From: an uncultured bacterium
GTDB taxonomy: Bacteria; Patescibacteriota; Saccharimonadia; Saccharimonadales; UBA4665
Direction of reading: 5' to 3'
NCBI GenBank assembly: GCA_963805865.1
Contig: CAWDVI010000003.1
Coordinates: forward strand, 334,131-398,130
Length of the DNA stretch: 64,000 nt
The translations under genes were made by a program, and so were the position numbers. Positions within the stretch are counted from its first letter, which is position 1; each line of letters opens with the position of its first letter. Under the pieces are notes generated by a model. That model did no database searches. It was not told the DNA's origin and saw only the letters and a program-made list of their open reading frames with translations. Below, piece by piece: positions 21,845-42,590 of the stretch.

Positions 21845-23311
<1,467 letters not shown>

Positions 23312-24788: not shown

Positions 24789-24837
24789 AAATCTTCCTCT
24801 CGGGTAAGTAACCCGGATTCCACCCATTGCTTAAAAA

Positions 24838-24914
24838 TGGTGGGCGATGAGGGACTCGAACCTCCGACCTCGTCATTATCAGTGACGCGCTCTAACCAGC
24901 TGAGCTAATCGCCC
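24838..24914 (-). tRNA. tRNA-Ile (anticodon GAT)
   Basis: Reverse complement reads GGGCGATTAGCTCAGCTGGTTAGAGCGCGTCACTGATAATGACGAGGTCGGAGGTTCGAGTCCCTCATCGCCCACCA. Confidence 0.95.
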
Positions 24915-24924
24915 TTATCGTACT

Positions 24925-25001
24925 TGGTGGAGGCACGGGGACTCGAACCCCGGACCCCCTGCTTGCAAAGCAGGTGCTCTAGCCAACTGAGCTATGCCCC
25001 C
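24925..25001 (-). tRNA. tRNA-Ala (anticodon TGC)
   Basis: Reverse complement reads GGGGGCATAGCTCAGTTGGCTAGAGCACCTGCTTTGCAAGCAGGGGGTCCGGGGTTCGAGTCCCCGTGCCTCCACCA, with G3:U70. Confidence 0.95.
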
Positions 25002-25289: not shown

Positions 25290-26117
25290 ATGCGGAGGAA
25301 AGGCTACTTCAGGCTATTGTTAACAGGGGTGGGGGCAACCCTTTTGTTGTTAGGTTTGGCTCCGGTCGGGGCATCTTCGGCCAATATCTCGCATTCCTAT
25401 CAGGCAAATAACAGCATCAAGGATAACAGTATCGTCAGCCTGGATTCCAACCAGTCGGGCTATGTGGTGCCGGCCAACGTCGATAACGGCTCCCAACTGC
25501 TGGGAGTGGCTGTAGCCGGCAATAACTCCCTGATCGCGGTAAACGCCGCGCCAGGCGCGCCAGGCAAGGTCCAGGTGGCCACTACGGGCACTGTGACGGC
25601 ACTGGTCAGCACTCTGAATGGCGATATCAAGGTTGGCGACCTGGTGGCGGTGTCGCCGTTCAATGGCGTGGGCATGAAGGCGGAGCCCGGTTCACGGGTG
25701 ATCGGCCTGGCCCAGACGGCCTTCAGCGGCGGCACCGAGGGCGCCACAACAGAGGCGGTCAAGACCAAAGACGGCCAGCGCCACACCGTGAAGGTCGGCT
25801 ATCTGCGCCTGAACATCGCCGTCGGCATCAACGCCAGTGCGTTGGGCGACAACCTGAACGGCCTGCAGAGGGTGACCCAGAGCATCACCGGCCACACCGT
25901 GCCAACGGCGCGGATCATCATCAGCCTGGCTGTGGCCATCATTGCCCTCTTGGCGCTGATTACGCTGGTCTACGCCTCGATCTACGGCAGTATTGTCTCC
26001 ATCGGTCGCAACCCCTTGGCCAAATATGCTGTTTTCCGGACGCTGGGATCGGTGCTAGGTTTGGCGCTATTGACCTCTGTTATAGCCGGACTGACGATCT
26101 TCTTCTTACTCCGTTAG
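25290..26117 (+). CDS. hypothetical exported protein with N-terminal signal/anchor and two C-terminal TM helices
   Basis: MRRKGYFRLLLTGVGATLLLLGLAPVGASS start (TGcTATAAT at 25271..25279 upstream). C-terminus has IIISLAVAIIALLALITLVY and GSVLGLALLTSVIAGLTIFFLL. Confidence 0.6.
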   Translation: MRRKGYFRLLLTGVGATLLLLGLAPVGASSANISHSYQANNSIKDNSIVSLDSNQSGYVVPANVDNGSQLLGVAVAGNNSLIAVNAAPGAPGKVQVATTGTVTALVSTLNGDIKVGDLVAVSPFNGVGMKAEPGSRVIGLAQTAFSGGTEGATTEAVKTKDGQRHTVKVGYLRLNIAVGINASALGDNLNGLQRVTQSITGHTVPTARIIISLAVAIIALLALITLVYASIYGSIVSIGRNPLAKYAVFRTLGSVLGLALLTSVIAGLTIFFLLR

Positions 26118-26358: not shown

Positions 26359-26387
26359 TTGACGGTGTCACAAATCTGCTATATACT
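26359..26387 (+). promoter_or_regulatory. candidate promoter of the giant gene
   Basis: TTGACG, 17 nt, TATACT, about 55 nt upstream of ATG 26442. Confidence 0.4.
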
Positions 26388-26441: not shown

Positions 26442-29400
26442 ATGCCAGCAAAATCAACCAAAAACACCAAAACCTGCCAGATTTGTAAGACCTCTTTCCA
26501 GGGAAGGAAGGACGCTAAGACCTGTTCGCCGGCTTGCCGCAAACGCTTACAGCGTAACCTGCAGGCTCAGATCGCCTATAAGGCCAAGCGGCTGGAATCG
26601 GTGTTGGGCAAGGAGCTCCACCGGATAGCCGCCGCCTTGCTTGAGAATCATGTCGTCCATGAGCCGCTGGTGCTGGCTGATGAGCGGGGCGCTATAGCGG
26701 TGGCTGAGCCGCCCACCGAAGAGAAGCAGGAGGGCGCGCTGGACGTTGAGCACGAGGAGCCGCCAGCCAGCCAGCCAGTGGCCAGCGAGCCTGCGGCTAA
26801 CGAGCCGGCTACTACCCAGATCCCAGTGGCTGCGCCGCCGAGCGAGCCAACCCCGGTTGAGCCGCAGATCCAGTCGACGGCGCTGCCCAGGGAAGCTGAT
26901 AAGCGCTTCTCGCCGTCGATAGTTACTCCTGAGCCAGTTGCCGAATCTTTGGAGTCCAACCCAGTTGAAGTTACCCCTGAACCTGCGGCTGCGCCGGAGC
27001 CAGCCGCCACCCCGGACATCCAGATCAGCCAGGCCGCGCCGATTGAAGAACAGCCGGTTCCAGAGCCAGCATCCCAGCCGGAACCCCAGGCGTCAACGGC
27101 GGCGCCGTCGGCCATTCATCTGGAAGACATGATGTCGTCGGAGTCGCTGGAGCCCTCGGCCTTCGGTGAAGCGGAATCTATGGAATCAGCCGCTGATGAC
27201 GGGGCTAAAGGTAAGCCGCCAAAGACGTCTGGTTTGGGTGGCAATTTCTCACTATTCCGCTGGAACAAGGTGGCGCTCATGGCCACTGGCCTGTCTCTGC
27301 TGGCTATCGTGGTGGTGTCGGTCGGAGGTTTCTTCCTGTTGTCCAGGCACAATACCCAGCATCTGGCCAGCAAGAACTCGCCGGGCAACTACTCTGTGGG
27401 CGACTTGCCATTGAGTAATGTCCAGGCTAACCCGGCCCTGCAGGTGGGCGAAGCCAATGAGGTGACCATCAACGGCCAGCTGACGGTCAACAAGACCCTG
27501 GTGCTGGCGCCAAGTTCAACGCCGTCGGCACCGGTGACGGGTCAGATTTACTACGACAAGACGGCCAACGCGCCAGCTTATTACAACGGTTCGCAGTTTA
27601 TAAGTTTAGCGCCGCAGCAAGGGGTTACTTCCATAGGCGGCCTGGGCGGTACCGTTGGCCTGGGTAACGGCTTGAGTGCCTCAGGCGATCAGATAGCGGT
27701 ATCCAACTCGCTCATCCAACAGATCAATGACGCCAGCAACCAGACCCGGGTCATCAGCCTCCAGGGCTTGTCTGGCAACCTGGCGCTAAGCGCCGGTCCG
27801 GGCATCAGCATCAACGGTCTTACCATTAGTGCGACTGGGGGTGGCGCAGGGGTTACCAGCTTAACCGGCACAGCAAACCAGGTCAATGTCTCGGCCGCTA
27901 CCGGCAATGTTACCCTGTCATTGCCCCAAAGTATCGCCACGACTTCTACGCCGACCTTTGGCGGATTGACACTAGGCAGTGCCCTGACAGCTGCCAACGG
28001 CGGTACAGGGGCCGCGAGTTTTACTTCCAACGGTATTCTGTACGGCAACGGCGCGGGGGCCATCCAAAGCACGGCGAGTGCCAATAACAGCGTGTTAGTG
28101 ACCAGTGGCGCCGGGGTGCCTAGCCTCAGCCAGACACTTCCGTTACAGGTGCAGAGCAATATTACTCAGACTGGCACCCTGAACGCGGGTGCCATAACCG
28201 CTGGCTTTGGAGCTATCTCAACCGTTAATAATATTACAACGTCAGCACTGATACAGGGTGGTTCCTTGCAGGTTACCGGGGGTAACTTTACTGTTGACGG
28301 TACGGGCAACGTTGTAGCTAATGGAACGGTTAACATAGAAGGGTCAGGCGGCATCACCATAGGTGTTGCAGGAACTACAGCAGGCAGTATAGTCATCGCC
28401 AATGCTTCAAACCTGCATACAACAACACTTCAAGCCCTGGCTTCCGCCACCCAGGATCAAACGATCACTATTCCCGTATCCAGTGCGACTACCGACCAGA
28501 TCTGTCTGTTAACGCTGGGTAACTGTTTCGGTTCAGGCAGTAGTGTTACGTCCATAGGCACACAGAACTACATCTCAAAATTCACGAACGCGGCGGCTAA
28601 CGAGATAGGCAACTCCCTGCTCTATGACAACGGTACCAGTGTTGGCGTGGGCACTATTACGCCCGGCGCCAGTTATTTGCTTGATGTGAACGGCAGTCTG
28701 AATGCCGCTGGTAGCGCGACTATCGGAACCGGCCTTACGGTCACGACCGGCGGGGCAACTATTACCGGTGATATCTTGCAAACCGGTACGGGAGCGTTCA
28801 CGACCGGCTCAGGCGCCGTTACATTGAACGGCAACACCAGCATAACCGGTTCTAAGACCCTGACCGTTGGCACCGGCGCGACGACACTGGGCGGCACGCT
28901 GGATGTAACCGGCCTGTCTACGCTCACTGGCGGGGCTACCATCTTGGCGCCCGCGACCATTACTGGCACGGCCAACATTAACACCACTGGTACGGCCAGC
29001 ACTTCCATAGGTAATGCTACCGGTAACTTCAGCTTGACCTCGCCTGGGCTGAATGTCAGCACCGCCGGGGCGCTCAGCGGTGTAACCGGTTATACCCAGA
29101 CTAGCGGCAACTTCAGTCAGAGCGGTACGGGCACCTTCGGTACGGGTACGGGAACGGTCAGCCTGAATGGCGCCACGTCTGTTACTAACGGGGACTTCAC
29201 CATAGGCGTAGCAGGCTCCACCGTTGGTAACCTCAATCTGGCTAATGCTACCTCTACCAGATTGGTTATTCTCCAAGGCCTGAATCCTTCCGGTGCCGGG
29301 GATGCCACTATACAGATTCCGACCATAGCCGGCGGCACTACGGATACGGTGTGTCTGCTGGCCCTGGCCAACTGTAGCGCTAGCGGCGCCGCTGGCGGCG

Positions 29401-32400
29401 ACCTGACGGGCAGCTACCCCAACCCGACCATCGCCAAACTGCAGGGCACCACTCTGACCCTGTCCTCCCTAGCTAGTGGCGATGTCCTGCAATACAACGG
29501 CTCCGCCATAGTGAACGGACATATAACTAACTCCAACCTGACTGCCGGTACCTTCTCCGCCATAACCGGCACTGGGGCACTAACAGCTGGTTCCATCGCC
29601 TCCGGCTTCGGAACTATCTCAACAGCCAATACCATCACCGGCACTACATTGAACGGTACCACCGGCATCAATACCGGAGCCGGTGCCGGCACCCAACGCA
29701 TAGACGCTAGCGGCAACCTGGTCAACATAGGTACCATTACCAGCGGGCTGATCAACGGCCAGACTATCTCCAGTAGTGCTAACTTTACGGGCAGCCTAAC
29801 AGTCCAAGGCGCTGGCGGTATAACGGCCGGCGTAGCCGGCGCCACAGCCGGCAGCCTGACCCTGGCCAATGGTAGCAATAGCCAGCTCAGCCTGCTACAG
29901 GCCAGCGCCCCCACCGGTGCCGGCAACGCCACCTTCCTGTTACCAGGCCTAGCCGGCGGTAGCAGCTACACCCTTTGTACCACCACCACCTGTGCCGCTA
30001 GCGGCAGCGGCGTAACTTCCTTGGACAGCCTGACCGGTGCCCTAACCATCAATAACAGTAGCGGCTCCGGCTCAGCCATCACCATAGATAATGCTGCCGC
30101 TGACGGTACCACTAAAGGTATAGCTACCTTCAACGCTACCAACTTTACGGCCAGCAGTGGAGTCATCAATACCATCCAGAACATAGCTACCACCTCCAGC
30201 CCGGTCTTCGTTTCACCGAACGGTACCACCGGCATCAATACCGGAGCAGGCGCCGGCACCCAACGCATAGACGCTAGCGGCAACCTGGTCAACATAGGTA
30301 CCATTACTACCTCCGGTGCTATCAATACCGCTACCATAAGTGGCGGTACACTCTCCGGCGGTAACGTCTCCGGCGGCACCCTGACAGCTACGGCTGTCAA
30401 CGGCCTGAATGTCTCCAGCACAGCCATAGCCGTCCAGGCAGCCGCCACCGGCCTGACCATAGACGCCGGTACATCCGGCACTGTCTCCATAGGCGCTACT
30501 TCTACAGGAGATATACTGCTAGGCGGCGGCTCCGGCTCTACCGGCTGTACGGTAACTAACTCCAATGGCAACCTGGCTTGTAGCGGTACCATCACCGGCA
30601 CTACCTTGAACGGCACCACCGGCATCAATACCGGAGCCGGCGCCGGCACCAACCGCATAGATTCCTCAGGCAACCTGGTCAACATAGGTACCATCACCAG
30701 TGGCCTGATCAACGGCCAGACTATCTCCAGTAGTGCTAACTTTACGGGGACGCTGGGTGTAGCCACCTCCGTCACCACGCCTCTAGTCAACCTGACCGTA
30801 GGCGCTAACACGGTCAGCATCAGCTCTGCCGCCCAGGCTAATGACGTAGCCCTATCCATACCAGCCGACACTAATACCACCGACACCCTATGTCTCCTAA
30901 CCTTAGGCAACTGCTCAGCCTCCGGCTCCGCCGGCGGCGACCTGACGGGCAGCTACCCCAACCCGACCATCGCCAAACTGCAGGGCACCACTCTGACCCT
31001 GTCCTCCCTAGCTAGTGGCGATGTCCTGCAATACAACGGCTCCGCCATAGTGAACGGACATATAACTAACTCCAACCTGACTGCCGGTACCTTCTCCGCC
31101 ATAACCGGCACTGGGGCACTAACAGCCGGCTCCATAGCCTCCGGCTTTGGCACTATAGCTACTGCTAACACCATCACTGGCACTACCATCAACGGCACCA
31201 CCGGCATCAATACCGGAGCCGGTGCCGGCACCCAGCGCATAGACGCTAGCGGCAACCTGGTCAACATAGGTACCATCACCAGTGGGCTGATCAACGGCCA
31301 GACTATCTCCAGTAGTGCTAACTTTACCGGGACGCTGACCGTCCAAGGCAGTAGCCTGACTGTCGGTACGCCGGGAACCACCATTGGCTCAATCAACCTA
31401 TCTACTAGTGCCAGCAACAGCAGGGAAGTCATTCTCCAAGGTCTTAATCCGTCTGGCACGGGCAATGCCACTATACAGATCCCAACCATCGCGGGCGGCA
31501 CGACTGACGCGGTCTGTTTGGTAGCGCTTGGCAATTGTGCCGGTAGCGGGGGCGGTATTACTGGTAGCGGTACATCAGGCACGCTAGCTGTCTTTACCGG
31601 TACGGGCAGTATTGGCAACTCAGTTATCACGGAATCCGGCAGCGCAGTTAGCGTAGCCGGTACCCTGGCTGTTACCGGTGCCAGCAGCCTAACGCTGGGC
31701 ACGGCAGGACCGGCTGGGAATACAGGCGCCATAGTCTTCAATAACTCTGCTAACGCCAACACCCTGACCCTGCAGTCTGGGGCGACTGGCAGCAACCTGA
31801 CCTTTACTTTGCCAACAGCTGACGGTGCTAATGGCGACTGTTTGATGACTAACAGCAGCGGTGTCTTAAGTTTCCAAGCTTGTACCGGCGGCGCTGGTGG
31901 CGGTGTCACCAGTCTTGATGGTCTTACAGGTATACTGACCATCAATAACAGTAGCGGCTCCGGCTCAGCCATCACCATAGATAATGCCGCCGCTGACGGT
32001 ACCACTAAAGGTATAGCTACCTTCAACGCTACCAACTTTACGGCCAGCAGTGGAGTCATCAATACCATCCAGAACATAGCTACCACCTCCAGCCCGGTCT
32101 TCGTTTCACCGAACGGTACCACCGGCATCAATACCGGAGCAGGCGCCGGCACCCAACGCATAGACGCTAGCGGCAACCTGGTCAACATAGGTACCATTAC
32201 TACCTCCGGTGCTATCAATACCGCTACCATAAGTGGCGGTACACTCTCCGGCGGTAACGTCTCCGGCGGCACCCTGACAGCTACGGCTGTCAACGGCCTG
32301 AATGTCTCCAGCACAGCCATAGCCGTCCAGGCAGCCGCCACCGGCCTGACCATAGACGCCGGTACATCCGGCACTGTCTCCATAGGCGCTACTTCTACAG

Positions 32401-35400
32401 GAGATATACTGCTAGGCGGCGGCTCCGGCTCTACCGGCTGTACGGTAACTAACTCCAATGGCAACCTGGCTTGTAGCGGTACCATCACCGGCACTACCTT
32501 GAACGGCACCACCGGCATCAATACCGGAGCCGGCGCCGGCACCAACCGCATAGATTCCTCAGGCAACCTGGTCAACATAGGTACCATCACCAGTGGCCTG
32601 ATCAACGGCCAGACTATCTCCAGTAGTGCTAACTTTACGGGGACGCTGGGTGTAGCCACCTCCGTCACCACGCCTCTAGTCAACCTGACCGTAGGCGCTA
32701 ACACGGTCAGCATCAGCTCTGCCGCCCAGGCTAATGACGTAGCCCTATCCATACCAGCCGACACTAATACCACCGACACCCTATGTCTCCTAACCTTAGG
32801 CAACTGCTCAGCCTCCGGCTCCGCCGGCGGCGACCTGACGGGCAGCTACCCCAACCCGACCATCGCCAAACTGCAGGGCACCACTCTGACCCTGTCCTCC
32901 CTAGCTAGTGGCGATGTCCTGCAATACAACGGCTCCGCCATAGTGAACGGACATATAACTAACTCCAACCTGACTGCCGGTACCTTCTCCGCCATAACCG
33001 GCACTGGGGCACTAACAGCCGGCTCCATAGCCTCCGGCTTTGGCACTATAGCTACTGCTAACACCATCACTGGCACTACCATCAACGGCACCACCGGCAT
33101 CAATACCGGAGCCGGTGCCGGCACCCAGCGCATAGACGCTAGCGGCAACCTGGTCAACATAGGTACCATTACTACCTCCGGCGCTATCAATACCGCTACC
33201 ATAAGTGGCGGTACACTCTCCGGCGGTAACGTCTCCGGCGGCACCCTGAGCGCCACGGCCGTCAACGGCCTGAATGTCTCCAGCACAGCCATAGCCGTCC
33301 AGGCAGCCGCCACCGGCCTGACCATAGACGCCGGTACATCCGGCACTGTCTCCATAGGCGCTACTTCTACAGGAGATATACTGCTAGGCGGCGGCTCCGG
33401 CTCTACCGGCTGTACGGTAACTAACTCCAATGGCAACCTGGCTTGTAGCGGTACCATCACCGGCACTACCTTGAACGGCACCACCGGCATCAATACCGGA
33501 GCCGGCGCTGGCACCAACCGCATAGATAGCTCAGGCAACCTGGTCAACATAGGTACCATTACTAGTGGCCTGATCAACGGCCAGACTATCTCATCCAGTG
33601 CTAACTTTACGGGGACGGTCGCTATACAAGGCGCTACCGCCCTGACGCTGGGCACAGCAGGACCGGCTGGGAATACAGGCGCCATAGTCTTCCAGAACTC
33701 TGCCGGCACCCACACCGTCACCCTGCAAGGCACGGCCGCCGATACGGCTGCTAATTACACTTTGACGATCCCAACTTTGACAGGGAATGACACGCTCTGC
33801 GTGGCTACCTTGTCCAACTGTACGGCGGCTGGATCGGCAAGTGGGGATCTTACGGGTACGTATCCTGGACCGACCATCGCCAAACTACAGGGCACCACTC
33901 TGACCCTGTCCTCCCTAGCTAGTGGCGACGTCCTGCAATACAACGGCTCAGCCATAGTCAACGGACATATAACTAACTCCAACCTGACTGCCGGTACCTT
34001 CTCCGCCATAACCGGCACTGGGGCACTAACAGCTGGTTCCATCGCCTCCGGCTTCGGTACCATCTCTACCGGCAACAACATAACTACTACCACCACCGTA
34101 CAGGGCGGGGTAGTCAATGCCACCTCCACCCTGGAACTGGGCGGCGCAGACATTAATACGGCCGGCACCCTGAGCAATGTGGCTTACTTGAATGCCACCA
34201 GCAATAACTTCACCAGCACTACTCTCCAGCACAATGGCAATGACATCTGCGACAATTCCAATAACTGTAACTACGCGCCGGCCAGTGGCGGCAACTACCT
34301 GGCCAGGAATGCTGCGGATACCTCATCCGCCGCCGTCACTGCCGCTAACAACCTGTACAGCTTCACCAACTCCAGCTCAGCCACCGCCTCGGGCGTCCTG
34401 AAGCTGGATAACGGCACCAACACCAACTCGGCACTTACAGTAACCGCCAGCGGCAACCCAACCTCCGGCCAGGCGCTGATCTTCGCCAGCAACACCAACG
34501 CCAGCCCCAGCGGCAATCTGATAGACCTGCAATCCGGCTCTAGCCCAACTTCCAAGTTTAGTGTTGATGCCAGCGGCAACCTGACAGCTACCGGCACCAT
34601 CAATGGTGCTACCATCACTTCAACCACCTTCAACACGGCCACCATATCCGGCGGCACCCTCACCGGCGGCAGTCTATCCAGCTCAGCCGTCAACGGTCTA
34701 TCCGTATCCGGCGGCACCATCACTAACCCGACTATTACCGGCACCGTAACCGGCTCCTCTAGTCCTACTATCTCCGGCTTCGGCACCTACAACGGCCAGA
34801 CTATCTCATCCAGCGCTAACTTTACTGGCACATTGGCAGTGCAGGGGGCTAGCACGACGATAGGTACGGCCAGTGGCACTACCGGCACGGTCAAGCTCTA
34901 CAACTCCGGCGGCTCCGGCTCCATCACCCTAACTCCGGCTAATCCAAGCTCTACTGATTACACTCTGACCCTGCCGGCTGAGAATGGCACCATCTGTACT
35001 ACCGGCAGTGTCTGTACTGGTTACGCGCCATCCAGCGGCGGCAACTACATAGCCAAGAACGCCCAAGATACCTCAAGCGCCAGCACCACTGGCAATCTGC
35101 TCGGCTTGACCAACACCAACACCGGCGCGGCCGGCGTTCTGAGCCTGACCAACAGCGGCACCAACTCAGCCCTAAGCATCTTGCAGAGCGGCACCAGTGA
35201 GCCGGGTGCCGGCGAAGCCCTCATAAAGGCCAATAATAATACGACCACGCCAACTGGTAACTTGCTAGACTTGCAGAACAAGGGTACCAGTGAATTCGCC
35301 GTTGACGTCAGCGGCAACAGCACGCAACTTGGCCTGGCGACCACGGTAGGCCTGAACGCCCAGTCCGGCCTGATCCAGGGCACTAACGGCCTGACGGTGA

Positions 35401-38400
35401 GCGGCGCGGCTATCAACCTGAATAACGGTACCATCGCCAGTAATGTCAGCAGCGTAGACCTGCTGAACGCCACTGTTACAACTCTAAACGTCGGCGGGGC
35501 AGTAGGAGCAGGCGGTATCAACCTGGCCGGCGGCTCCAGCTCAACCGGCTGTACCATTGACGGCACTAACGGCAACCTGGTTTGTACCGGCAGTATTACT
35601 AGCGGCGGCGGCTCTGCCGTAGGCTACTGGAGCCGCACCGGCACCACTTTGTCACCGGCTACATCTGGCGACAATGTCACCACCTCTGGCAACATCTCCA
35701 CCAGTGGCTCAGGGACCATTACAAGCGCCTCAACAGTTACCGGTACTACCTTGAACGGTACTACTGGCATCAATACCGGAGCGGGCGCTGGCACCCAGCG
35801 CATAGATAGCAGCGGCAACCTGGTAGCCATAGGTAATATTACCGGCTCCAGTGCTGTAGCTATCGCTGCCGGCAGTACTGCCCAAAACATAACCTTAGAC
35901 GGCTCCACTACCGGCAAGGTACAGATCGGCGCCACCTCCACCGGCGATATTGAACTAGGCGGCGGCTCCGGCTCAACCGGCTGTACGCTCACCAATTCCA
36001 CCGGCGCCTTCGCTTGTACAAGCACCATCAACGGCGCCACCATCTCCGGCGGCACGCTCTCCGGCGGTAACGTATCCGGCGGTACTTTGACAGCAACAGC
36101 AGTCAACAGCCTGAACGTATCTAGTACTGCCATAGCGGTTCAAGCTGCAGCCACGGGCCTGACCATAGATGCCGGCACCAGCGGAACCGTATCAATCGGC
36201 GCCACTTCCACCGGCGACATCCTACTGGGCGGCGGCTCTGGCGCGACTGGTTGTACGGTTGCTAACTCCAGCGGTAATCTAACCTGCACAGGCACCATTA
36301 ACGGCGCCACCCTAAGCGGTGGCACACTGAGCTCAGGCGCCGTGAACTCATTGAATGTATCCGGCACGGCAATCTCCGGCACCGGCGCCCTGACGGTGGA
36401 CGCCAACGGCGCCAACACAGTATCAATAGGCGGTATCTCAACCGGCGATGTCCTACTGGCTGGCGGCTCCGGCGCGAACGGCTGTACAGTAGCCAACTCC
36501 ACAGGCAACCTGACCTGTACCGGCAACATAACTGGAGCCGCTACCGGCACTGTCGGTTACTGGACCCGCTCCGGCACCACACTATCACCAGCCACGGCAG
36601 GCGACGCCATCACCACCACCGGCAACATCTCCACGACTAGCACTGGCACCATCACTTCCGCTGGCCTGCTAACCGGCAGTTTGGGTGCCACCATCTCCGG
36701 CGCGGCCATCAGCCTAAACGCTTCCTCCAACTTCGCCACCAACATTAACACTGGTAGCTCAACCGGCGCGGTCGCCATCGGAAATACAACGGCAGCAGAG
36801 ACAGTTACTATCCAGGGCGGCACCGGTGCTAGCGCCGTAGCTATCTCGACCGGCTCAGCCGGAACCTTGAGCCTTGGTAATGGTGGCGTAGCCGGCACCA
36901 TCCAGATAGGTAATACTTCCGGCGCCGTAGCCCAGACCATAGGAATCGGCAACAACGCCACTGCCAGCTCCACCAGCGCCCTCACCATCGGCAACTTACT
37001 GACTACTTCCACGACCGCCATCCAGGGTGGCACCGGCTCCACAGCCGTAACTATCCAATCCGGTGCCTCCGGCACCATCAGCGTCGGCACTACTTCCCAG
37101 ACTTCCACCCTGAACCTGGGCAACACCAGCGCCTCATCCACCACCCTCATAAACGGTGGCACTGGCGCTAGTGCCATCAGCATCCAAGCCGGCACCTCTG
37201 GCACCATCAGCATCGGCACCACTAACGTCAACACTGTAACGGTTGGCAACACCTCCAACGCCGGCACCCTGACCTTCGGCCGGTCCACCCAGGGTGAGAC
37301 CATCAACATCGGCAATGGTAACGTCGCCTCCGGCAAGACCAACACCATCAACATTGGCGCCACCGCTACGTCCACTGGTAAGGATGTGGTCACTGTAGGC
37401 AGTACTGTGGCCGCCTCCACGCTGACGCTGCAGGGCGGCAACACCTCCTCAGCAGTAAGCATACAGTCCGCGGCCTCCGGCACCATCAGCGTGGGCACCT
37501 CCGGTGTAGCTAACACTGTTCAAATCGGTAACACCAGCGGCGCAGTAGCCCAGACCATCAACATCGGCAACAGCTCCACCGCTAGCTCTACCAACACCGT
37601 AAACATCGGTTCGGCCATAGGCACTAGCCCTATAACTCTGAAGGGTGGCACTAGTGGCATCACTCTCAATCCGGCTGGCGGATCATCGAATAACGGTGTA
37701 TTGGTTAAGCCAACCAGCGACACCACCACCGCCTTCCAGGTGCAGAATGCCAGCGGCACGGCCGCCCTAAATGTAGATACTACCAATATGACTACGACCT
37801 TGCAGGGCGGTGCCGATACGGCCACCATAGGCTCAGAGCTGATAACTACTACGGACTTCACCAATGCAGCCTGGACTAAAACCGGCTGGAGCACCACTAC
37901 GACTACGGCCACACATAACACCGGCAACACCAACCCGCTGTACTCGGCCCAGTTTACGTCCTCTACGACTGCTACATATCAGGTTAAATATACTGTTAGC
38001 GGTAGTCCTGCGCTTGGTTCCACGCTTAGTGTGTTATTCGGGAGTTCCTCTGGAGCGGGTGGATGCACGGTAGCCAGCCATACATTTGAGGGTGCTTCTG
38101 CAAGCAACTTTACCAATACAGTGCTTTTGACATGCAGTTCTTCCACCACAGGTGAAATAAGCTTTGTCCCGTCCAGTGATTTCAATGGAATTATATCGGC
38201 CGTGTCAATTAAAGAAGTAACTTTGAATGCCAGCCCAGCTTTCACAATTAACGACTCTACGGGTGTCGCTTATCTAGAAGTCAGGACTGCCACCGGTAGC
38301 AGTGGCGGTAACCTCTTTATCGGCAATAATTCTGGCCAGTCCGATACCAATGGCTGGGCTAATACAGCAGTTGGATTACACGCACTACAAGATAATACAA

Positions 38401-40304
38401 CAGGCATAGCCAACACGGCGTTTGGCAACGGAGCTTTGCAACACACCACTACCTCCTTGTTTAACACCGCCGTAGGCGCGGTTGCTTTGCAGAGCAATAC
38501 TACAGGAGGATCTAATGTAGCATTAGGCTATAATTCTCTTCATGATAACCTTACAGGTAGCAACAACGCTGGTATAGGTACAAGCGCTTTGCAGCACAAC
38601 ACCACAGGAAGCTACAACACTGCGCTCGGTATTGCTTCCTTGCAGAATAGCACTATAGGGAAACAGAACACGGCCGTAGGCTATAGTTCTTTAAATGGCA
38701 ACACCACAGGAAGCTACAACACTGCGCTTGGCATAAATGCACTATTAACGAATACCACTGGAGCACATAACACAGCTGTCGGCGAGGGGGCTGACGTAGG
38801 CTCTGCCGGTCTATCTAACGCCACTGCCATCGGCACTCACTCTCTGGTGAGCCAAAGCGACAGCCTGGTTTTGGGTTGTGTCAGTGGCACGAATAGCTGT
38901 ACCGCCAACACTAAAGTTGGCATCGACAACGCCGCGCCGGCCCATACCCTGGACGTTGCTGGCGACGGCCTGTTCAAGACCGATTCCACCGCCGCCTTCC
39001 AGATTCAGGATGCTTCTGGCAATACCCATTTCTCGGTCGATACCTCAGGTTCTACATACACTGCGGTCAACGTGGGCGGTTCTGGCACTTCATATGGCGA
39101 GATCAACCTCTTACAAGGCAGCAGTAAGATATGGGGTCTGGCTACTGATGACGGTGGCCCTGGTGGATCCAACGGCCTTAACTTCTATAACTATGGCGCA
39201 GGCACCGTCAACTTCGCGTTGTCAGCCGATGGCGAAGCGTACTTTACCACCGACGATGGTAGCAGCAACGACTCCTATACTGCCCTACAGGTGCGGAATC
39301 ACAGCGATACATCATCCTTCATAGTCAGTACCAAAAACGTGTCTACCGGCTACAATTCGGCCAATGCCATCTTGAAAGTCGCCAAGGATTCCGGCACGAA
39401 CCGCTCAATCAACGCCGCCGGTTCTATCAATGCCTCCGGAGCTGACTACGCGGAGTATATATCTTGGAGTGGCGCCGTGCCTGACCCGGGTTCGGTAGTG
39501 ACCTACAACGGTAGCGCATACGTGGTGTCTTCCCAAGACACCGCCGCGTTCGTCGGTAATGATAACTTTAGCGGCGGCAGTGTGCTGGTAACCTTCGCCG
39601 GCCAGGTGCCCGTTAAGGTAACCGGCACGGTTAACGCCGGCGACCTGTTGGTAGATAACGGCGATGGCACGGCCAAGGCGGTGGATCCGGCCAGCGCCTC
39701 CATAATGCAGTACGTCGGCAAGCTGGGCATCGCCCAGGAGGCTAGCTCGGATAGCGGCGTCAAGCTGGTCAAAGCGGCCATCGGTACCACCAGCTCTAAT
39801 GTAAATTCTGCTCTGGGTCAAACATCAAGTGGCAGTTTCTCGGATATCAACGTCAGCGGCACGGCCACGATTAATAACCTGACGGTTACCGGTTCGGCCA
39901 ATATTGCTGACTTGACGGCTGGCAGCCTACACGTTACTTCCAGCGCGGTCTTTGCCGGTGATATCACCGTGGGCGGGCATATCATCACCTCTGGTGGACA
40001 GCCGACGGCTACGGCCCAGGCTTCGGCGGGCGGCTCGGCTACAGTGGCGGTGGATGGCACGGACACCACCGGTACGATTACGATAACTACCGGTAGCGCG
40101 CCTTCGGCTGGCGACCTGGCCAAGATCCTGTTCTCGCGGACCTACGGTGCCGCGCCGCACATCGTCTTGAGTCCGTCCAATGACAAGGCCGCGGGCTTGC
40201 ACTTCTACAAGGGGTCGACGAGCGCCACGGACTTCATGTTCGACGCCCAGGACGCCCCGGCGGCCAACACCACGTACACCTTTGACTACTTCATCGCGCA
40301 GTAA
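26442..40304 (+). CDS. giant (4,620 aa) N-terminally membrane-anchored, repeat-rich cell-surface fibre/adhesin-like protein with tail-fibre-like C-terminal region
   Basis: Single uninterrupted 13.9-kb ORF. CxxC..CxxC N-terminus, acidic Pro-rich linker, one TM helix (about 27267..27341), then about 4,300 aa of G/T/S/N/A-rich repeats. NTAxG repeats at about 38340..38830 and a GADYAEY motif at about 39430. Confidence 0.9.
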   Translation: MPAKSTKNTKTCQICKTSFQGRKDAKTCSPACRKRLQRNLQAQIAYKAKRLESVLGKELHRIAAALLENHVVHEPLVLADERGAIAVAEPPTEEKQEGALDVEHEEPPASQPVASEPAANEPATTQIPVAAPPSEPTPVEPQIQSTALPREADKRFSPSIVTPEPVAESLESNPVEVTPEPAAAPEPAATPDIQISQAAPIEEQPVPEPASQPEPQASTAAPSAIHLEDMMSSESLEPSAFGEAESMESAADDGAKGKPPKTSGLGGNFSLFRWNKVALMATGLSLLAIVVVSVGGFFLLSRHNTQHLASKNSPGNYSVGDLPLSNVQANPALQVGEANEVTINGQLTVNKTLVLAPSSTPSAPVTGQIYYDKTANAPAYYNGSQFISLAPQQGVTSIGGLGGTVGLGNGLSASGDQIAVSNSLIQQINDASNQTRVISLQGLSGNLALSAGPGISINGLTISATGGGAGVTSLTGTANQVNVSAATGNVTLSLPQSIATTSTPTFGGLTLGSALTAANGGTGAASFTSNGILYGNGAGAIQSTASANNSVLVTSGAGVPSLSQTLPLQVQSNITQTGTLNAGAITAGFGAISTVNNITTSALIQGGSLQVTGGNFTVDGTGNVVANGTVNIEGSGGITIGVAGTTAGSIVIANASNLHTTTLQALASATQDQTITIPVSSATTDQICLLTLGNCFGSGSSVTSIGTQNYISKFTNAAANEIGNSLLYDNGTSVGVGTITPGASYLLDVNGSLNAAGSATIGTGLTVTTGGATITGDILQTGTGAFTTGSGAVTLNGNTSITGSKTLTVGTGATTLGGTLDVTGLSTLTGGATILAPATITGTANINTTGTASTSIGNATGNFSLTSPGLNVSTAGALSGVTGYTQTSGNFSQSGTGTFGTGTGTVSLNGATSVTNGDFTIGVAGSTVGNLNLANATSTRLVILQGLNPSGAGDATIQIPTIAGGTTDTVCLLALANCSASGAAGGDLTGSYPNPTIAKLQGTTLTLSSLASGDVLQYNGSAIVNGHITNSNLTAGTFSAITGTGALTAGSIASGFGTISTANTITGTTLNGTTGINTGAGAGTQRIDASGNLVNIGTITSGLINGQTISSSANFTGSLTVQGAGGITAGVAGATAGSLTLANGSNSQLSLLQASAPTGAGNATFLLPGLAGGSSYTLCTTTTCAASGSGVTSLDSLTGALTINNSSGSGSAITIDNAAADGTTKGIATFNATNFTASSGVINTIQNIATTSSPVFVSPNGTTGINTGAGAGTQRIDASGNLVNIGTITTSGAINTATISGGTLSGGNVSGGTLTATAVNGLNVSSTAIAVQAAATGLTIDAGTSGTVSIGATSTGDILLGGGSGSTGCTVTNSNGNLACSGTITGTTLNGTTGINTGAGAGTNRIDSSGNLVNIGTITSGLINGQTISSSANFTGTLGVATSVTTPLVNLTVGANTVSISSAAQANDVALSIPADTNTTDTLCLLTLGNCSASGSAGGDLTGSYPNPTIAKLQGTTLTLSSLASGDVLQYNGSAIVNGHITNSNLTAGTFSAITGTGALTAGSIASGFGTIATANTITGTTINGTTGINTGAGAGTQRIDASGNLVNIGTITSGLINGQTISSSANFTGTLTVQGSSLTVGTPGTTIGSINLSTSASNSREVILQGLNPSGTGNATIQIPTIAGGTTDAVCLVALGNCAGSGGGITGSGTSGTLAVFTGTGSIGNSVITESGSAVSVAGTLAVTGASSLTLGTAGPAGNTGAIVFNNSANANTLTLQSGATGSNLTFTLPTADGANGDCLMTNSSGVLSFQACTGGAGGGVTSLDGLTGILTINNSSGSGSAITIDNAAADGTTKGIATFNATNFTASSGVINTIQNIATTSSPVFVSPNGTTGINTGAGAGTQRIDASGNLVNIGTITTSGAINTATISGGTLSGGNVSGGTLTATAVNGLNVSSTAIAVQAAATGLTIDAGTSGTVSIGATSTGDILLGGGSGSTGCTVTNSNGNLACSGTITGTTLNGTTGINTGAGAGTNRIDSSGNLVNIGTITSGLINGQTISSSANFTGTLGVATSVTTPLVNLTVGANTVSISSAAQANDVALSIPADTNTTDTLCLLTLGNCSASGSAGGDLTGSYPNPTIAKLQGTTLTLSSLASGDVLQYNGSAIVNGHITNSNLTAGTFSAITGTGALTAGSIASGFGTIATANTITGTTINGTTGINTGAGAGTQRIDASGNLVNIGTITTSGAINTATISGGTLSGGNVSGGTLSATAVNGLNVSSTAIAVQAAATGLTIDAGTSGTVSIGATSTGDILLGGGSGSTGCTVTNSNGNLACSGTITGTTLNGTTGINTGAGAGTNRIDSSGNLVNIGTITSGLINGQTISSSANFTGTVAIQGATALTLGTAGPAGNTGAIVFQNSAGTHTVTLQGTAADTAANYTLTIPTLTGNDTLCVATLSNCTAAGSASGDLTGTYPGPTIAKLQGTTLTLSSLASGDVLQYNGSAIVNGHITNSNLTAGTFSAITGTGALTAGSIASGFGTISTGNNITTTTTVQGGVVNATSTLELGGADINTAGTLSNVAYLNATSNNFTSTTLQHNGNDICDNSNNCNYAPASGGNYLARNAADTSSAAVTAANNLYSFTNSSSATASGVLKLDNGTNTNSALTVTASGNPTSGQALIFASNTNASPSGNLIDLQSGSSPTSKFSVDASGNLTATGTINGATITSTTFNTATISGGTLTGGSLSSSAVNGLSVSGGTITNPTITGTVTGSSSPTISGFGTYNGQTISSSANFTGTLAVQGASTTIGTASGTTGTVKLYNSGGSGSITLTPANPSSTDYTLTLPAENGTICTTGSVCTGYAPSSGGNYIAKNAQDTSSASTTGNLLGLTNTNTGAAGVLSLTNSGTNSALSILQSGTSEPGAGEALIKANNNTTTPTGNLLDLQNKGTSEFAVDVSGNSTQLGLATTVGLNAQSGLIQGTNGLTVSGAAINLNNGTIASNVSSVDLLNATVTTLNVGGAVGAGGINLAGGSSSTGCTIDGTNGNLVCTGSITSGGGSAVGYWSRTGTTLSPATSGDNVTTSGNISTSGSGTITSASTVTGTTLNGTTGINTGAGAGTQRIDSSGNLVAIGNITGSSAVAIAAGSTAQNITLDGSTTGKVQIGATSTGDIELGGGSGSTGCTLTNSTGAFACTSTINGATISGGTLSGGNVSGGTLTATAVNSLNVSSTAIAVQAAATGLTIDAGTSGTVSIGATSTGDILLGGGSGATGCTVANSSGNLTCTGTINGATLSGGTLSSGAVNSLNVSGTAISGTGALTVDANGANTVSIGGISTGDVLLAGGSGANGCTVANSTGNLTCTGNITGAATGTVGYWTRSGTTLSPATAGDAITTTGNISTTSTGTITSAGLLTGSLGATISGAAISLNASSNFATNINTGSSTGAVAIGNTTAAETVTIQGGTGASAVAISTGSAGTLSLGNGGVAGTIQIGNTSGAVAQTIGIGNNATASSTSALTIGNLLTTSTTAIQGGTGSTAVTIQSGASGTISVGTTSQTSTLNLGNTSASSTTLINGGTGASAISIQAGTSGTISIGTTNVNTVTVGNTSNAGTLTFGRSTQGETINIGNGNVASGKTNTINIGATATSTGKDVVTVGSTVAASTLTLQGGNTSSAVSIQSAASGTISVGTSGVANTVQIGNTSGAVAQTINIGNSSTASSTNTVNIGSAIGTSPITLKGGTSGITLNPAGGSSNNGVLVKPTSDTTTAFQVQNASGTAALNVDTTNMTTTLQGGADTATIGSELITTTDFTNAAWTKTGWSTTTTTATHNTGNTNPLYSAQFTSSTTATYQVKYTVSGSPALGSTLSVLFGSSSGAGGCTVASHTFEGASASNFTNTVLLTCSSSTTGEISFVPSSDFNGIISAVSIKEVTLNASPAFTINDSTGVAYLEVRTATGSSGGNLFIGNNSGQSDTNGWANTAVGLHALQDNTTGIANTAFGNGALQHTTTSLFNTAVGAVALQSNTTGGSNVALGYNSLHDNLTGSNNAGIGTSALQHNTTGSYNTALGIASLQNSTIGKQNTAVGYSSLNGNTTGSYNTALGINALLTNTTGAHNTAVGEGADVGSAGLSNATAIGTHSLVSQSDSLVLGCVSGTNSCTANTKVGIDNAAPAHTLDVAGDGLFKTDSTAAFQIQDASGNTHFSVDTSGSTYTAVNVGGSGTSYGEINLLQGSSKIWGLATDDGGPGGSNGLNFYNYGAGTVNFALSADGEAYFTTDDGSSNDSYTALQVRNHSDTSSFIVSTKNVSTGYNSANAILKVAKDSGTNRSINAAGSINASGADYAEYISWSGAVPDPGSVVTYNGSAYVVSSQDTAAFVGNDNFSGGSVLVTFAGQVPVKVTGTVNAGDLLVDNGDGTAKAVDPASASIMQYVGKLGIAQEASSDSGVKLVKAAIGTTSSNVNSALGQTSSGSFSDINVSGTATINNLTVTGSANIADLTAGSLHVTSSAVFAGDITVGGHIITSGGQPTATAQASAGGSATVAVDGTDTTGTITITTGSAPSAGDLAKILFSRTYGAAPHIVLSPSNDKAAGLHFYKGSTSATDFMFDAQDAPAANTTYTFDYFIAQ
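30045..31276 (+). repeat. 1.23-kb intragenic direct repeat, copy A
   Basis: Line-by-line comparison with 31938..33169 (offset exactly 1893 nt, in frame) found one mismatch (30093 t vs 31986 c). Confidence 0.9.
31938..33169 (+). repeat. 1.23-kb intragenic direct repeat, copy B
   Basis: See copy A. The antisense ORFs 29966..30910 and 30953..32803 share an identical ~290-aa N-terminus for the same reason. Confidence 0.9.
40053..40304 (+). repeat. terminal 252-nt segment of the giant gene (R0), founder of the downstream 3'-end cassette family
   Basis: Encodes DGTDTTGTITITTGSAPSAGDLAKILFSRTYGAAPHIVLSPSNDKAAGLHFYKGSTSATDFMFDAQDAPAANTTYTFDYFIAQ*. Confidence 0.9.
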
Positions 40305-40411: not shown

Positions 40412-40636
40412 ATGTTCATGAGCAAACAACTGAGGTATGATGTCGTGCTTGAGCCCCAGCCGAGCGGCGGTTATACCGTGTACGTGCCCGATTTACCAGG
40501 TTGCGTCAGCGAAGGCCGCACCAAAAGCGAAGCCCTAGCCATGATCCGCGACGCTATCACCGGCTATTTGGCAGTTCGCGCCAAGAAGGGCTGGCGCTTG
40601 CCCAAGGTGGAGCATCAGCAGGTTACTGTAACGTGA
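40412..40636 (+). CDS. hicB: HicB-family antitoxin (UPF0150-type)
   Basis: AAGGAGG RBS; YDVVLEPQPSGGYTVYVPDLPGCVSEGRTKSEALAMIRDAI; stop overlaps the hicA GTG start (GTGA). Confidence 0.8.
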   Translation: MFMSKQLRYDVVLEPQPSGGYTVYVPDLPGCVSEGRTKSEALAMIRDAITGYLAVRAKKGWRLPKVEHQQVTVT

Positions 40637-40851
40637 GTCCGCGCTTACCGCGGCTTACCAGCAAACAATTTATTAAAATCCTCAGAGCTCACGGCTGGGA
40701 AGTAGCCCGCGTCACTGGCAGTCATCACATTATGGCCCACCCCAGAACGAAAGGGATTATCTCCGTTCCACAACACAACCGGACAATGAGTATCGGCACG
40801 CTCAGCCGTTTGGTAAAAGACGCCGGCCTGACGGCCGATGACTTGCACTAG
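40633..40851 (+). CDS. hicA: HicA-family mRNA interferase toxin
   Basis: LTSKQFIKILRAHGWEVARVTGSHHIMAHPRTKGIISVPQHNRTMSIGTLSRLVKDAGL. Confidence 0.8.
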   Translation: MSPRLPRLTSKQFIKILRAHGWEVARVTGSHHIMAHPRTKGIISVPQHNRTMSIGTLSRLVKDAGLTADDLH

Positions 40852-41061: not shown

Positions 41062-41096
41062 TCCCACAGGACCGCAAGGTGTCTGTGGGATTTTTT
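41062..41096 (+). terminator. terminator-like hairpin plus T6 in the leader of NYN gene 1
   Basis: TCCCACAG-13 nt-CTGTGGGA followed by TTTTTT, 16 nt before ATG 41112. Confidence 0.5.
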
Positions 41097-41111
41097 GATA
41101 TACTGTGTGGC

Positions 41112-41684
41112 ATGCCAAAAACCAAAGAACGCTGTGTCATCCTGATTGATGGCAGTAATTTCTTCTTTAAGCTGAAAGATTTACGGCTTCATAATCTGCT
41201 GTCGTTTGACTTCACGGCTTTCAATGGCTACCTGAGCCGCGGCGCCTCTGTTAATGGTGCCACCTATTTTGTCGGCAAGGTGAGGACTGACGGCACCAAA
41301 AAATCCAAACGAATGCAGGCTGATCAGCAGCGGTTGTTCAAACATCTTGCTATGCATGGTTACCGTTACTCGCTCGGTTATTTATTAAAAAATGATGGAG
41401 TTTTTCATGAAAAAGGCGTTGATGTTGAGATAGCCGTGGCTATTTTGGTGACCGCGTACGAAAATTTGGCGGACCGGATCATTCTGGTGTCGTCTGATAC
41501 GGATTTATTGCCAGCCATCAAAAAAGCTCAGCAAAAGGGCAAAACGGTGGAGTACGTCGGCTTCTCGCACAAGCCAAGTTTGGCGCTGGTTGCTCGCTGT
41601 GCCAAAAGCCGCCTGCTTGACCGTGCGGACTTGGAAGGCTTCATCTCAACCCGCAGGCGTAAACCGCCAGCCAGATCACACTAG
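41112..41684 (+). CDS. NYN/LabA-like (PIN-type nuclease) domain protein 1
   Basis: CVILIDGSNFFFKL..HEKGVDVEIAVAIL..DRIILVSSDTDLLPAIKKAQQKGKTVEYVGF. TAG stop abuts cassette C2 in frame. Confidence 0.8.
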   Translation: MPKTKERCVILIDGSNFFFKLKDLRLHNLLSFDFTAFNGYLSRGASVNGATYFVGKVRTDGTKKSKRMQADQQRLFKHLAMHGYRYSLGYLLKNDGVFHEKGVDVEIAVAILVTAYENLADRIILVSSDTDLLPAIKKAQQKGKTVEYVGFSHKPSLALVARCAKSRLLDRADLEGFISTRRRKPPARSH

Positions 41685-41997: not shown

Positions 41998-42590
41998 ATG
42001 ACTAAAGGTATTTTTGTGTACATTGATTGTGCAAATTTGGACGGCTCGCTTGATAAGCTGGGCTACAAGGGAATTGACTATCCCAGGCTACTTAATTGGC
42101 TCAAAACGAGACGGAAGGCCAGAGAGTTTACTTGTACGCCGGGTACAGCGACGCGCCCCAGAAGGCAAAGTTCAAAAAATTAGAGAAACTGGGCTACATA
42201 GCGAACCTTAAAAAGGTAAAACAATATCCCCCGGAATACAGGACACATAAGTTAAAATGTCCTGGTTGTTCAGCAACAAATAAACACACGGTAAAACGTA
42301 TCGGCAGACGGAAGGCCAATTGTGACTCCGAGCTGACGCTAGACGTCATCAATGACGGCGTACGCAAGAAATATGCCGGCATAATCGTATTCTCTGGCGA
42401 TGGGGATTTCTCGCGTATGTACGAATACGTGGCCGAAGAGCTGGTGAAACCGGTAGTCGTTTTTTCTCCCATGGGTTCAGTTGCAGGCAGCAGAACATCA
42501 ACCAGAGTGAAAGATCTCCATAAAAAAGGAATTATAAGAATAGACGCGCTGGAAGGAATACTCGGTTACAAAGGATACGGCATCAAATGA
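41998..42590 (+). CDS. NYN/LabA-like domain protein 2 (frame switch in an A-run near 42100-42110)
   Basis: ORF 41998..42183 (IFVYIDCANLDG..LLNWLK) continues in ORF 42096..42590 (RVYLYAGY..RKANCDSELTLDVI..IIVFSGDGDF). TATAAT at 41983. Confidence 0.7.

Follow-up and report, generated by a model that had tools for sequence, protein, structure and literature searches.

A giant putative surface protein of Saccharibacteria with features of phage tail fibres

Introduction

What would a bacterium with a reduced genome do with a single protein of 4,620 amino acids (aa)? The question is raised by a gene in the DNA of an uncultured member of the Saccharimonadales (Patescibacteriota; contig CAWDVI010000003.1 of assembly GCA_963805865.1, positions 334,131 to 398,130). 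This stretch of 64,000 nucleotides (nt) is called the window below, and coordinates refer to it unless a homologous locus is named. The gene, at 26442..40304 on the + strand with the stop codon included, amounts to about 1.3–1.8% of a genome of 0.8–1.1 Mb, the sizes being taken from the genome records of relatives. A preliminary description of the sequence had placed it in an epibiotic lineage with a reduced genome and had named its product a host-recognition candidate. The placement is supported by the 16S rRNA of the window, which is 95–97% identical to the 16S of metagenome-assembled genomes labelled Saccharibacteria. The function touches a field in which, beyond type IV pili, little is known about the means by which episymbiotic Patescibacteria select a host and hold on to it (PMC10633639, PMC11623550).

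We favour, with moderate confidence, the view that the giant protein is a cell-surface fibre of a Saccharibacterium that follows the plan of a phage tail fibre, is rooted in the cytoplasmic membrane and contacts host bacteria. A fibre that recognises its target with the distal tip has gained support from a block of NTAxG repeats shared with phages, a domain of the Peptidase_G2 type, a family with conserved ends and a mosaic middle, and a homologue whose tip is the target of a diversity-generating retroelement (DGR). The candidacy proposed earlier is therefore strengthened by the tip features and by that homologue; the role as an adhesin or in host recognition is plausible, and we infer it from them. 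In what follows, loci with a homologue carry L numbers and homologous proteins P numbers.

The Distal Tip Carries Phage-Fibre Modules

The NTAxG repeat block occupies aa ~3940–4135 (38259..38846, + strand). It matches PHROG families 23837, 4636 and 6002, which are tail-spike and virion-structural families, at E~1e-20, and 75 phage records align to it with 34–50% identity under the annotations tail fiber, tail spike and endo-N-acetylneuraminidase. The protein search with the tip as the query gave 4,898 hits, and thousands of bacterial proteins labelled “tail fiber domain-containing”, with a Peptidase_S74 chaperone at the end, match the block.

The block is followed by a distal domain at aa 4136–4334 (38847..39443, +), which was delimited in alignment A2, is modelled by AlphaFold2 (AF2) with low confidence and ends in S-INAAGS-INASGA. 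The next domain, at aa 4335–4440 (39444..39761, +), is probably of the Peptidase_G2 intramolecular-chaperone type and begins with D4335-Y-A-E4338-Y; an autocleavage site is predicted after A4334, at the border of the two. The C-terminal 450 aa have 94 homologues, mostly fragments at contig ends, and those with a name are mostly Patescibacteria; a tblastn search of the same 450 aa against phage records gave no match. The A2 profile, made from 45 of the 94, found two entries in the PDB, namely 28nb_A (“chaperon domain D4 for tailspike protein Dpo31”, E 6.6e-4) and the C-terminal fragment of phi29 gp12, 3gqh_A (E 4.9e-3). The alignment to 3gqh_A starts at residue 1 of the chain (DFAEYFE), exactly opposite D4335-YAEY, and the counterpart in 28nb_A is SDYAEYFE. 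The aspartate at residue 1 of 3gqh_A is presumably the new N-terminus that gp12 autocleavage produces. In the A2 family, S-INAAGS-INASGADYAE[YW] is among the best-conserved stretches, with D-[YF]-A-E conserved.

The structural models agree with this assignment to a degree. The predicted local distance difference test (pLDDT) score of the AF2 model is 82–91 for aa 4340–4440 and ~97 for aa 4520–4620. Foldseek places the C-terminal model near 3gqh_A (probability 0.98, E 0.12, TM 0.44) and, among BFVD models, near a “preneck appendage protein” (E 1.4e-5, TM 0.46); the best BFVD matches are uncharacterised phage proteins (2.5e-10 and 5.6e-9). Taken from sequence and model together, a G2-type intramolecular chaperone is likely to be present in the giant protein, and cleavage and trimer assembly are predicted. 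The chain closes with a short beta-helix stretch, which has a weak bactofilin-like match, and a beta-sandwich of ~105 aa ending ...TTYTFDYFIAQ (together 39762..40301, +). The BFVD match of the sandwich, at 5.6e-9 and with a root-mean-square deviation of 1.5 over 115 columns, is a protein of an uncultured phage.

On the proximal side of the NTAxG block, conservation, AF2 and Foldseek point to a beta-sandwich of the jelly-roll type, ~150 aa long (aa ~3780–3930), within aa ~3761–3935 (37722..38246, +). It is conserved in P0118, P0057, P0067, P0068 and P0044. Its pLDDT is 60–70, its Foldseek matches to the carbohydrate-binding modules (CBMs) CBM16, CBM6 and CBM4 are weak (E 0.02–0.1), and at the sequence level no match was found. 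The model thus offers a lead, and the jelly-roll may possibly bind carbohydrate. Such a module could also bind polysaccharide in the environment, and relatives come from soil and water metagenomes. The fibre might then serve other contacts, such as cohesion between sibling cells, attachment to plant or soil polymers, or a part as decoy or receptor in phage interactions. The same evidence fits the binding of a host glycan equally well, however, and nothing in it is specific to these other targets, so that we consider such uses quite improbable.

A Homologous Tip Diversified by a Retroelement

A further argument for contact of the fibre through its tip comes from the homologue at locus L018, whose open reading frame (ORF) spans 9878–17395 of that locus and has the 16S gene, tRNAs and the partner gene described below upstream in syntenic order. 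Its C-terminus reads ...YGFTRGGGWSYGSYAGAFTLALPTAPTSTSTSIGFRVAR, which we take to be the ending of a variable region (VR) with the FGE/C-type-lectin fold. The VR consists of the last 116 nt of the homologue (17277–17392) and is repeated as a template repeat (TR) at 18556–18671. The two copies differ at 16 positions, and 15 of the 16 lie at adenines of the TR, which encodes the AAC-rich GFIRGGNWNNGSNAGAFTLNLNNNPTNTNTNIGFRVAR. Between VR and TR lies a reverse transcriptase (RT) in two ORF pieces (17442–18615), probably split by a sequencing error. As read from the sequence, this is a complete DGR acting on the distal end of a fibre of the same family, and it speaks for the C-terminus as the part of these fibres where ligand binding matters. 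The window holds no ORF longer than 150 aa with YxDD, no lectin-fold C-terminus and no TR; with no RT present, diversification by a DGR does not extend to the window gene.

Membrane Anchor, Proximal Motif and Shaft

The reading frame of the giant gene is open from its ATG over 13,860 nt with no internal stop, as the ORF listing and the translation agree, and its codon-position GC is uniform along the whole length; the uninterrupted frame of 13.9 kb that had been described is real. Long antisense ORFs opposite the gene are a product of its biased composition. The protein begins with a Lys/Arg-rich, cytoplasmic Cys4 zinc-ribbon (26442..26561, +; C12, C15, C28, C32). Its cysteines are spaced C12-x2-C15 and C28-x3-C32, so that the CxxC form claimed for both pairs is right for the first one and has to be changed to CxxxC for the second. 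This tail has weak PHROG matches to the zinc-ribbon parts of HNH-endonuclease families (E 9e-5), and its score against Pfam DUF2256 is far under the threshold. The region that follows (26562..27266, +) consists of a helix-like cytoplasmic stretch, aa 41–90, which is conserved in alignment A1, and of the acidic Pro/Glu/Ala linker that had been noted, aa 91–275. Over aa 61–275, the composition is 16% A, 16% P and 14% E, and the net charge is −28.

The only hydrophobic segment in the 4,620 aa, by the Kyte-Doolittle scale, is the transmembrane (TM) helix VALMATGLSLLAIVVVSVGGFFLL at aa 277–300 (27270..27341, +); the single helix and its end had been correctly described, and the start moves from about 27267 to 27270. 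Five K/R residues flank it before and two after. These flank charges, together with the zinc-ribbon on one side and the closed Cys pairs on the other, favour a signal-anchor with the N-terminus inside and the C-terminus outside, and the location of the phage-fibre modules on the C side of the helix favours it as well. The topology of the preliminary description is thereby upheld at the level of prediction. The giant protein is not of the wall-anchored or S-layer type: it has no LPXTG sorting signal and no hydrophobic tail, its C-terminus being FDYFIAQ, and no SLH domain was matched in Pfam.

Directly outside the membrane lies a conserved module, aa 305–480 (27354..27881, +), which profile and homology searches identify as the family-defining part. 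It contains the 26-aa stretch SAPVTGQIYYDKTANAPAYYNGSQF (aa 358–383), ~60 residues past the membrane, which matches 42 IMG/VR contigs at ~70% identity and also PHROG 8309 and 20787, “virion structural protein”. Fourteen of the viral matches were inspected, and in them the motif stands at residue ~25 of phage ORFs of 400–650 aa that begin MAR(LF/QY)..., so that cellular and phage fibres are alike at their proximal ends. Hits P0147 and P0149, which carry an Mtd_N domain, had led to the suspicion of such a domain in this module as well, and the idea was dropped when their similarity to the giant protein proved to lie elsewhere.

The ectodomain of ~4,300 aa is made of T (17%), G (16%), S (12.5%), A (11.6%) and N (8.7%), which together reach ~66%, and it holds 137 N-x-S/T sequons. 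Its 38 cysteines form 19 short-range pairs, from C-x5 to C-x23, with none left unpaired; seven of the 19 have the form C-x10-C. The pairing had been described as periodic CxLxxLGNC; the pairs exist, and this literal type is found in few of them (CLLTLGNC three times, CLLALANC, CLVALGNC). Most of the ectodomain is a repetitive shaft, aa 481–3700 (27882..37541, +), a mosaic of modules with 17 of the Cys pairs and nine GINTGAGAGTxRID motifs, in full GINTGAGAGTxRIDxSGNLVxIG. The remaining two pairs lie beyond the shaft at aa 3875/3898 and 4146/4153.

Such a composition suits a different function, that of a general surface coat or spacer, in which glycosylatable fibrils would form a glycocalyx and so shield the cell, hold off phages and predators or stick non-specifically to particles and biofilm. 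A shaft without recognisable binding domains fits a coat, as does a family with conserved ends whose middle varies mostly in length. The distal modules, however, are typical of phage receptor-binding proteins, the DGR-targeted tip of L018 suits specific ligand recognition and not a passive coat, and a single-copy gene of 13.9 kb would be a costly source of bulk material. A coat function is therefore rated as unlikely, although not negligible.

Self-comparison revealed an in-frame segmental duplication in the shaft (30096..33169, +). The segment 30096–31276 equals 31989–33169 exactly over 1,181 nt, the offset of 1,893 nt corresponds to a unit of 631 codons, and a third, partial copy lies near 33261–33508. 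The exact repeat is evidence, at the sequence level, of a recent duplication of a module in frame.

No Shine-Dalgarno sequence precedes the ATG, as had been stated; the same holds for most genes in the window, and the feature is not special to this one. A consensus scan found a sigma-70-like candidate promoter, TTGACG-17-TATACT (26359..26387, +), followed by an A-rich leader without a Shine-Dalgarno sequence, and this might be the promoter of the giant gene.

A Family with Conserved Ends and a Mosaic Middle

The survey of homologues and their lengths that had been suggested places the giant protein in a large family, with 29 loci, 322 clusters and sizes from 677 to >4,289 aa. The search with aa 1–700 returned partial Saccharimonadales and Saccharimonadia proteins (P0121, P0122) covering 95–99% of the query. 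When one genome from each GTDB species was scanned, 29 loci with a homologue emerged, nearly all from Saccharibacteria/Saccharimonadales, with one short contig labelled Verrucomicrobiia; each homologue of this set has one N-terminal TM helix. Three of the ORFs run off the fetched DNA (L008 >4,231, L009 >4,289 and L019 >4,141 aa), and complete ones measure 3,724, 3,360, 2,610, 2,505 and 2,188 aa, the shortest having 677 aa. HMMER with aa 262–480 matched 322 representative clusters at E<=1e-3, 173 of them at E<=1e-10, and the matches start almost always at residue 35–90 of the matched protein. Hits that include the N-terminal TM/anchor module are mainly from Saccharibacteria, with other Patescibacteria besides.

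Most members begin with an acidic tail of ~45 aa. The zinc-ribbon tail is a minority variant, found in 2 of 152 representatives and in L001, L002 and L011, and it is seen in P0122 and P0302. At the other end, the last ~105 aa (...TY.F.YF..Q) are common to the window protein, L013, L020, L027, L025 and 13 representatives (677–2,494 aa), while L018 and L015 end differently. P0302 (2,494 aa), a shorter orthologue of full length, shares the zinc ribbon, the G2 motif and the ending with the window protein and can be aligned to it on both flanks. Peptidase_S74, BppL_N, Mtd_N and Gly_rich_2 are carried by relatives. The sequences thus describe a family in which both ends are conserved and the middle is a mosaic that varies in length, a pattern that is that of phage tail fibres.

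The literature found on Saccharibacteria and Patescibacteria contains no description of this family, of a phage-fibre plan, of the partner gene or of a location in the rRNA spacer. Giant membrane proteins proposed to be host-attachment fibres, and DGR targets, are already known in the candidate phyla radiation (CPR).

The Locus: A Split rRNA Operon

The window is chromosomal, with the RNase P RNA, gyrB and gyrA genes present. The giant gene lies inside a spacer of 21.8 kb between the 16S rRNA gene (21846–23309, +) and the 23S rRNA gene (45083–48299, +), which is followed by 5S (48429–48543, +). In 13 of the 29 loci, a 16S gene precedes the homologue on its own strand, the flank of many others being too short to tell, and those of the 13 that were examined for tRNAs have inverted tRNAs between 16S and the homologue, as in the window (tRNA-Ile/tRNA-Ala, 24838–25001, −). 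In L015 and L029, the homologue is followed by the 23S gene. In two Saccharimonadia genomes of a study of circularised CPR genomes, the rRNA genes are operonic (PMC8172020), so the split operon is not universal.

Directly upstream of the giant gene lies the gene of a membrane protein of ~275 aa (25290–26117, +), which has an N-terminal signal or TM segment, an ectodomain of ~200 aa and two C-terminal TM helices with SIGRNPLAK. Among the loci with enough flank, orthologues with 35–64% identity occupy the same position in L002, L009, L018, L020, L027 and L029, and the protein is a probable partner of the giant fibre. Its mRNA is probably leaderless, since a TATAAT ends at 25279, 11 nt before the ATG. 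Family and PHROG searches gave no assignment. A phage cement-like (beta-tulip) identity was considered and is not claimed, as it had only a match to XM1_gp53 (E 0.0066) and a lipoyl-domain match (E 0.9) in its favour.

The position of the giant gene between 16S and 23S by gyrBA, the recurrence of the 16S synteny, the conserved partner and the lack of a full-length match among viral contigs mark it as a cellular gene and not a phage gene. The protein is not a virion tail fibre: its context is chromosomal, among rRNA and gyrase genes, and a TM anchor takes the place of the virion adaptor. The possibility that the gene is a prophage tail-fibre gene, a pseudogene or an artefact of assembly was weighed against this background. 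Parts of the protein are phage-like, the exact internal repeat of 1,181 nt is a structure that assemblers mishandle, and the homologue at L002 is broken after 99 codons (9890–10300 of that locus). This is the closest homologue on a long contig, with the same zinc-ribbon N-terminus, and its frame break may be a sequencing frameshift rather than the mark of a pseudogene. Set against these points are the 13,860 nt of open frame with uniform codon-position bias and the independent assemblies that hold ORFs of >4,100–4,289 aa and complete ones of 2,494–3,724 aa with the same two ends. Phage genes do not flank the giant gene, the 16S gene recurs upstream in the 13 loci, the TM anchor is absent from the phage ORFs inspected, and the similarity to IMG/VR viral contigs is limited to the 26-aa motif. 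An origin of this kind is very improbable.

Between the giant gene and tRNA-Leu/23S lie an ORF with a HicA toxin domain (40501–40851) and three ORFs with NYN domains, which are RNase-like (41079–41684, 42096–42590 and 43054–43719). They had been described as an accessory array attached to the 3' end of the giant gene. The comparison does not sustain that view, as the downstream genes are not conserved: HicA and NYN ORFs in the window are replaced by a reverse transcriptase in L018 and by LVIVD/H-lectin proteins in L029. Genes of the toxin-antitoxin type in this place, and a size and repetitiveness like those of CdiA, might suggest a filament for contact-dependent toxin delivery, of the CdiA or polymorphic-toxin type, with the C-terminus as payload. 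Pfam and NCBIfam, however, show no TPS/haemagglutination-activity domain, FHA repeat, pre-toxin or toxin domain; the C-terminal domain is conserved across species and not polymorphic, and the downstream genes do not travel with the family. Such a filament has hardly any probability in our assessment.

Other features of these loci were recorded as well. The slot between 16S and the tRNAs holds unrelated cargo: a variable ORF of 336 aa without an assigned family in the window (23817–24827, −) versus an ORF like a Shedu (SduA_C) defence nuclease in L002 (6499–7524, −). Homology of the two was considered, and they are not homologous. The 23S gene of the window spans 3,217 nt against a model of 2,925 positions, probably with one or more insertions or introns inside, and in L018 (4558–7221 of that locus) the 16S gene spans 2.4 kb, which implies a large insertion, and is followed by an Rfam match to group II intron D1-D4 at 7154–7221. 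Upstream of gyrB, an ORF of 813 aa (13797–16238, +) has AAA_22, HerA/DUF87 and TraG-D_C matches; these suggest a coupling ATPase of the VirD4/TraG kind, which may belong to a type IV secretion system. Two tRNA-Leu(CAG) genes (44213–44302 and 60282–60373, −) are present within these 64 kb, although the genome is small.

Comparison with Known Systems

The phi29 preneck appendage gp12 (MEROPS G2) and the tailspike Dpo31 of a Klebsiella phage, with its domain D4, share a plan with the giant protein: a motif at the N-terminal attachment end, a repetitive shaft, a distal repeat block and a C-terminal chaperone starting with D-[FY]-A-E-Y. The likeness in the fold of the chaperone is predicted, with weak agreement. 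The differences are considerable. In place of a virion-binding domain, the giant protein has a TM helix and a cytoplasmic tail at its proximal end, the gene is chromosomal in a cellular lineage at a conserved locus, and the protein is about 5–10 times longer. It also has ~180 additional aa, the beta-helix and beta-sandwich, after the G2-like region, and its cleavage and trimerisation are only predicted.

Among cellular proteins, the bacterial “tail fiber domain-containing proteins” of Bacteroidota and others share the NTAxG block with 40–55% identity over ~20% of the tip query and are likewise composed of phage-fibre parts. Those listed are 665–1,606 aa long, and most end in Peptidase_S74 (PF13884), not in G2. 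Trimeric autotransporter adhesins such as YadA and BadA, too, are surface fibres of great length and repetitive build whose distal head is rich in repeats, and some relatives of the NTAxG block are labelled as such. Their anchor, however, is a C-terminal beta-barrel in the outer membrane and their N-terminus is distal, whereas the giant protein is oriented in the opposite way, with an N-terminal alpha-helical anchor in the inner membrane. It is not a member of that class, as neither the whole protein nor its pieces match YadA_anchor or YadA_head in Pfam.

Vampirococcus lugosii, a CPR predator, is, like the organism of the window, an episymbiont with a reduced genome and giant membrane-located proteins, the longest having 1,392–4,163 aa, which were proposed to be surface fibres for host recognition (PMC8080830). 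These contain WD40, PKD, integrin, DUF11 and fibronectin domains, and no phage-fibre plan, chaperone or rRNA-locus synteny was described for them (PMC8080830). The DGR-diversified surface proteins of CPR bacteria and Mtd of the Bordetella phage are resembled by the L018 homologue, with its lectin-fold VR, RT and adenine-specific TR. The window gene differs from these systems in having no RT, TR or lectin-fold end; its tip consists of the G2-type chaperone and the conserved beta-sandwich.

Strength of the Interpretation

Several observations speak against the interpretation as a host-contacting fibre with a phage-like tip or lower its force. The first concern the tip itself. The call of a CBM-like jelly-roll is weak, and the PDB matches of the A2 profile are marginal (E 7e-4 to 5e-3). 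Against Pfam PF11962 (Peptidase_G2), the giant protein scores 16.7–17.8 bits, below the gathering score of 25. The model is passed, at 37.3 bits, by the homologue P0229, which aligns to the window protein with 38% identity, 80% coverage and E 4.5e-37, so that the G2 homology is supported transitively and not directly. The G2 motif is absent from the family members L013, L027 and L025; the domain is therefore not obligatory for assembly, and other tips exist. In the distal part, conservation is highest over the last 105 aa, and this fits a role in assembly better than variable receptor binding.

The second group concerns the shaft, which makes up 70% of the protein and has no Pfam, NCBIfam or PDB match and, in a tblastn search with aa 301–1500, none among phage records. 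For the whole giant protein and six pieces of it, Pfam and NCBIfam gave no significant model, and against the PDB nothing usable came from phmmer with the whole protein, the N-terminus and the tip or from profiles A1 and A7. The AF2 monomer model of aa 3020–4170, made from an alignment of six sequences, has a mean pLDDT of 46.6, with the shaft below 50, and its Foldseek matches, to the K2 tailspike and to CBMs, are too weak for a conclusion. Poor monomer models are common for obligate oligomeric fibres with shallow alignments, so the result is evidence neither way. The fibre shape and the trimeric state are assumed from analogy. Owing to the exact repeat, the number of module copies in the shaft is provisional; the frame would be open whatever the number.

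The last group concerns the host, whose binding by the giant fibre is proposed by inference. The essential adhesins that transposon sequencing identified in cultured Southlakia carry other domains, namely VCBS, dockerin and FN3 (PMC10633639).

If the giant protein is nevertheless a fibre that contacts hosts, its life could proceed as follows. The TM helix would direct the chain to Sec/YidC as a signal-anchor, and the ectodomain would be exported. The C-terminal chaperone would nucleate an oligomer, probably a trimer by analogy with the G2 and S74 chaperones, which would zip back toward the membrane, and it may then cleave itself after A4334. The Cys pairs would close as disulfides and lock the shaft. 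The jelly-roll, the NTAxG block and aa 4136–4334 would bind a glycan or protein of the host surface and make a long-range first contact. Length and specificity would be retuned through the duplication and swapping of modules and, in some species, through mutagenesis by DGRs. In T4 long tail fibres and in adhesins of the BadA type, each residue accounts for about 0.05–0.08 nm. By analogy, the fibre could be roughly 200–350 nm long, which is comparable to the cell.

Significance

There are several ways in which the family can be approached. Its ends are recognisable and can be searched with hidden Markov models, the predicted cleavage site between A4334 and D4335 can be tested by point changes, and the distal tip can be expressed and tried against envelopes of host bacteria. 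The diversified tip of L018 is a natural experiment that argues for the tip as the ligand-binding site. The slot between 16S and 23S is relevant to the evolution of rRNA operons in CPR bacteria, and long-amplicon methods that span 16S-ITS-23S would fail on such genomes.

A bolder idea, which we put forward tentatively and regard as doubtful in its full form, is that the plan of the phage tail fibre has been domesticated in Saccharibacteria and serves them as a permanent cellular organelle, which would be rooted in the inner membrane, assembled by a chaperone, trimeric and as long as the cell, with a dedicated partner encoded in the rRNA spacer. Its tip would set which hosts can be parasitised, the shuffling of modules or the action of DGRs would re-tune the organelle, and in the zinc-ribbon subclade the cytoplasmic domain would couple engagement of the tip to a response inside the cell. 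Should the host range indeed be set by the fibre, the hosts of uncultured Saccharibacteria could be predicted from tip sequences.

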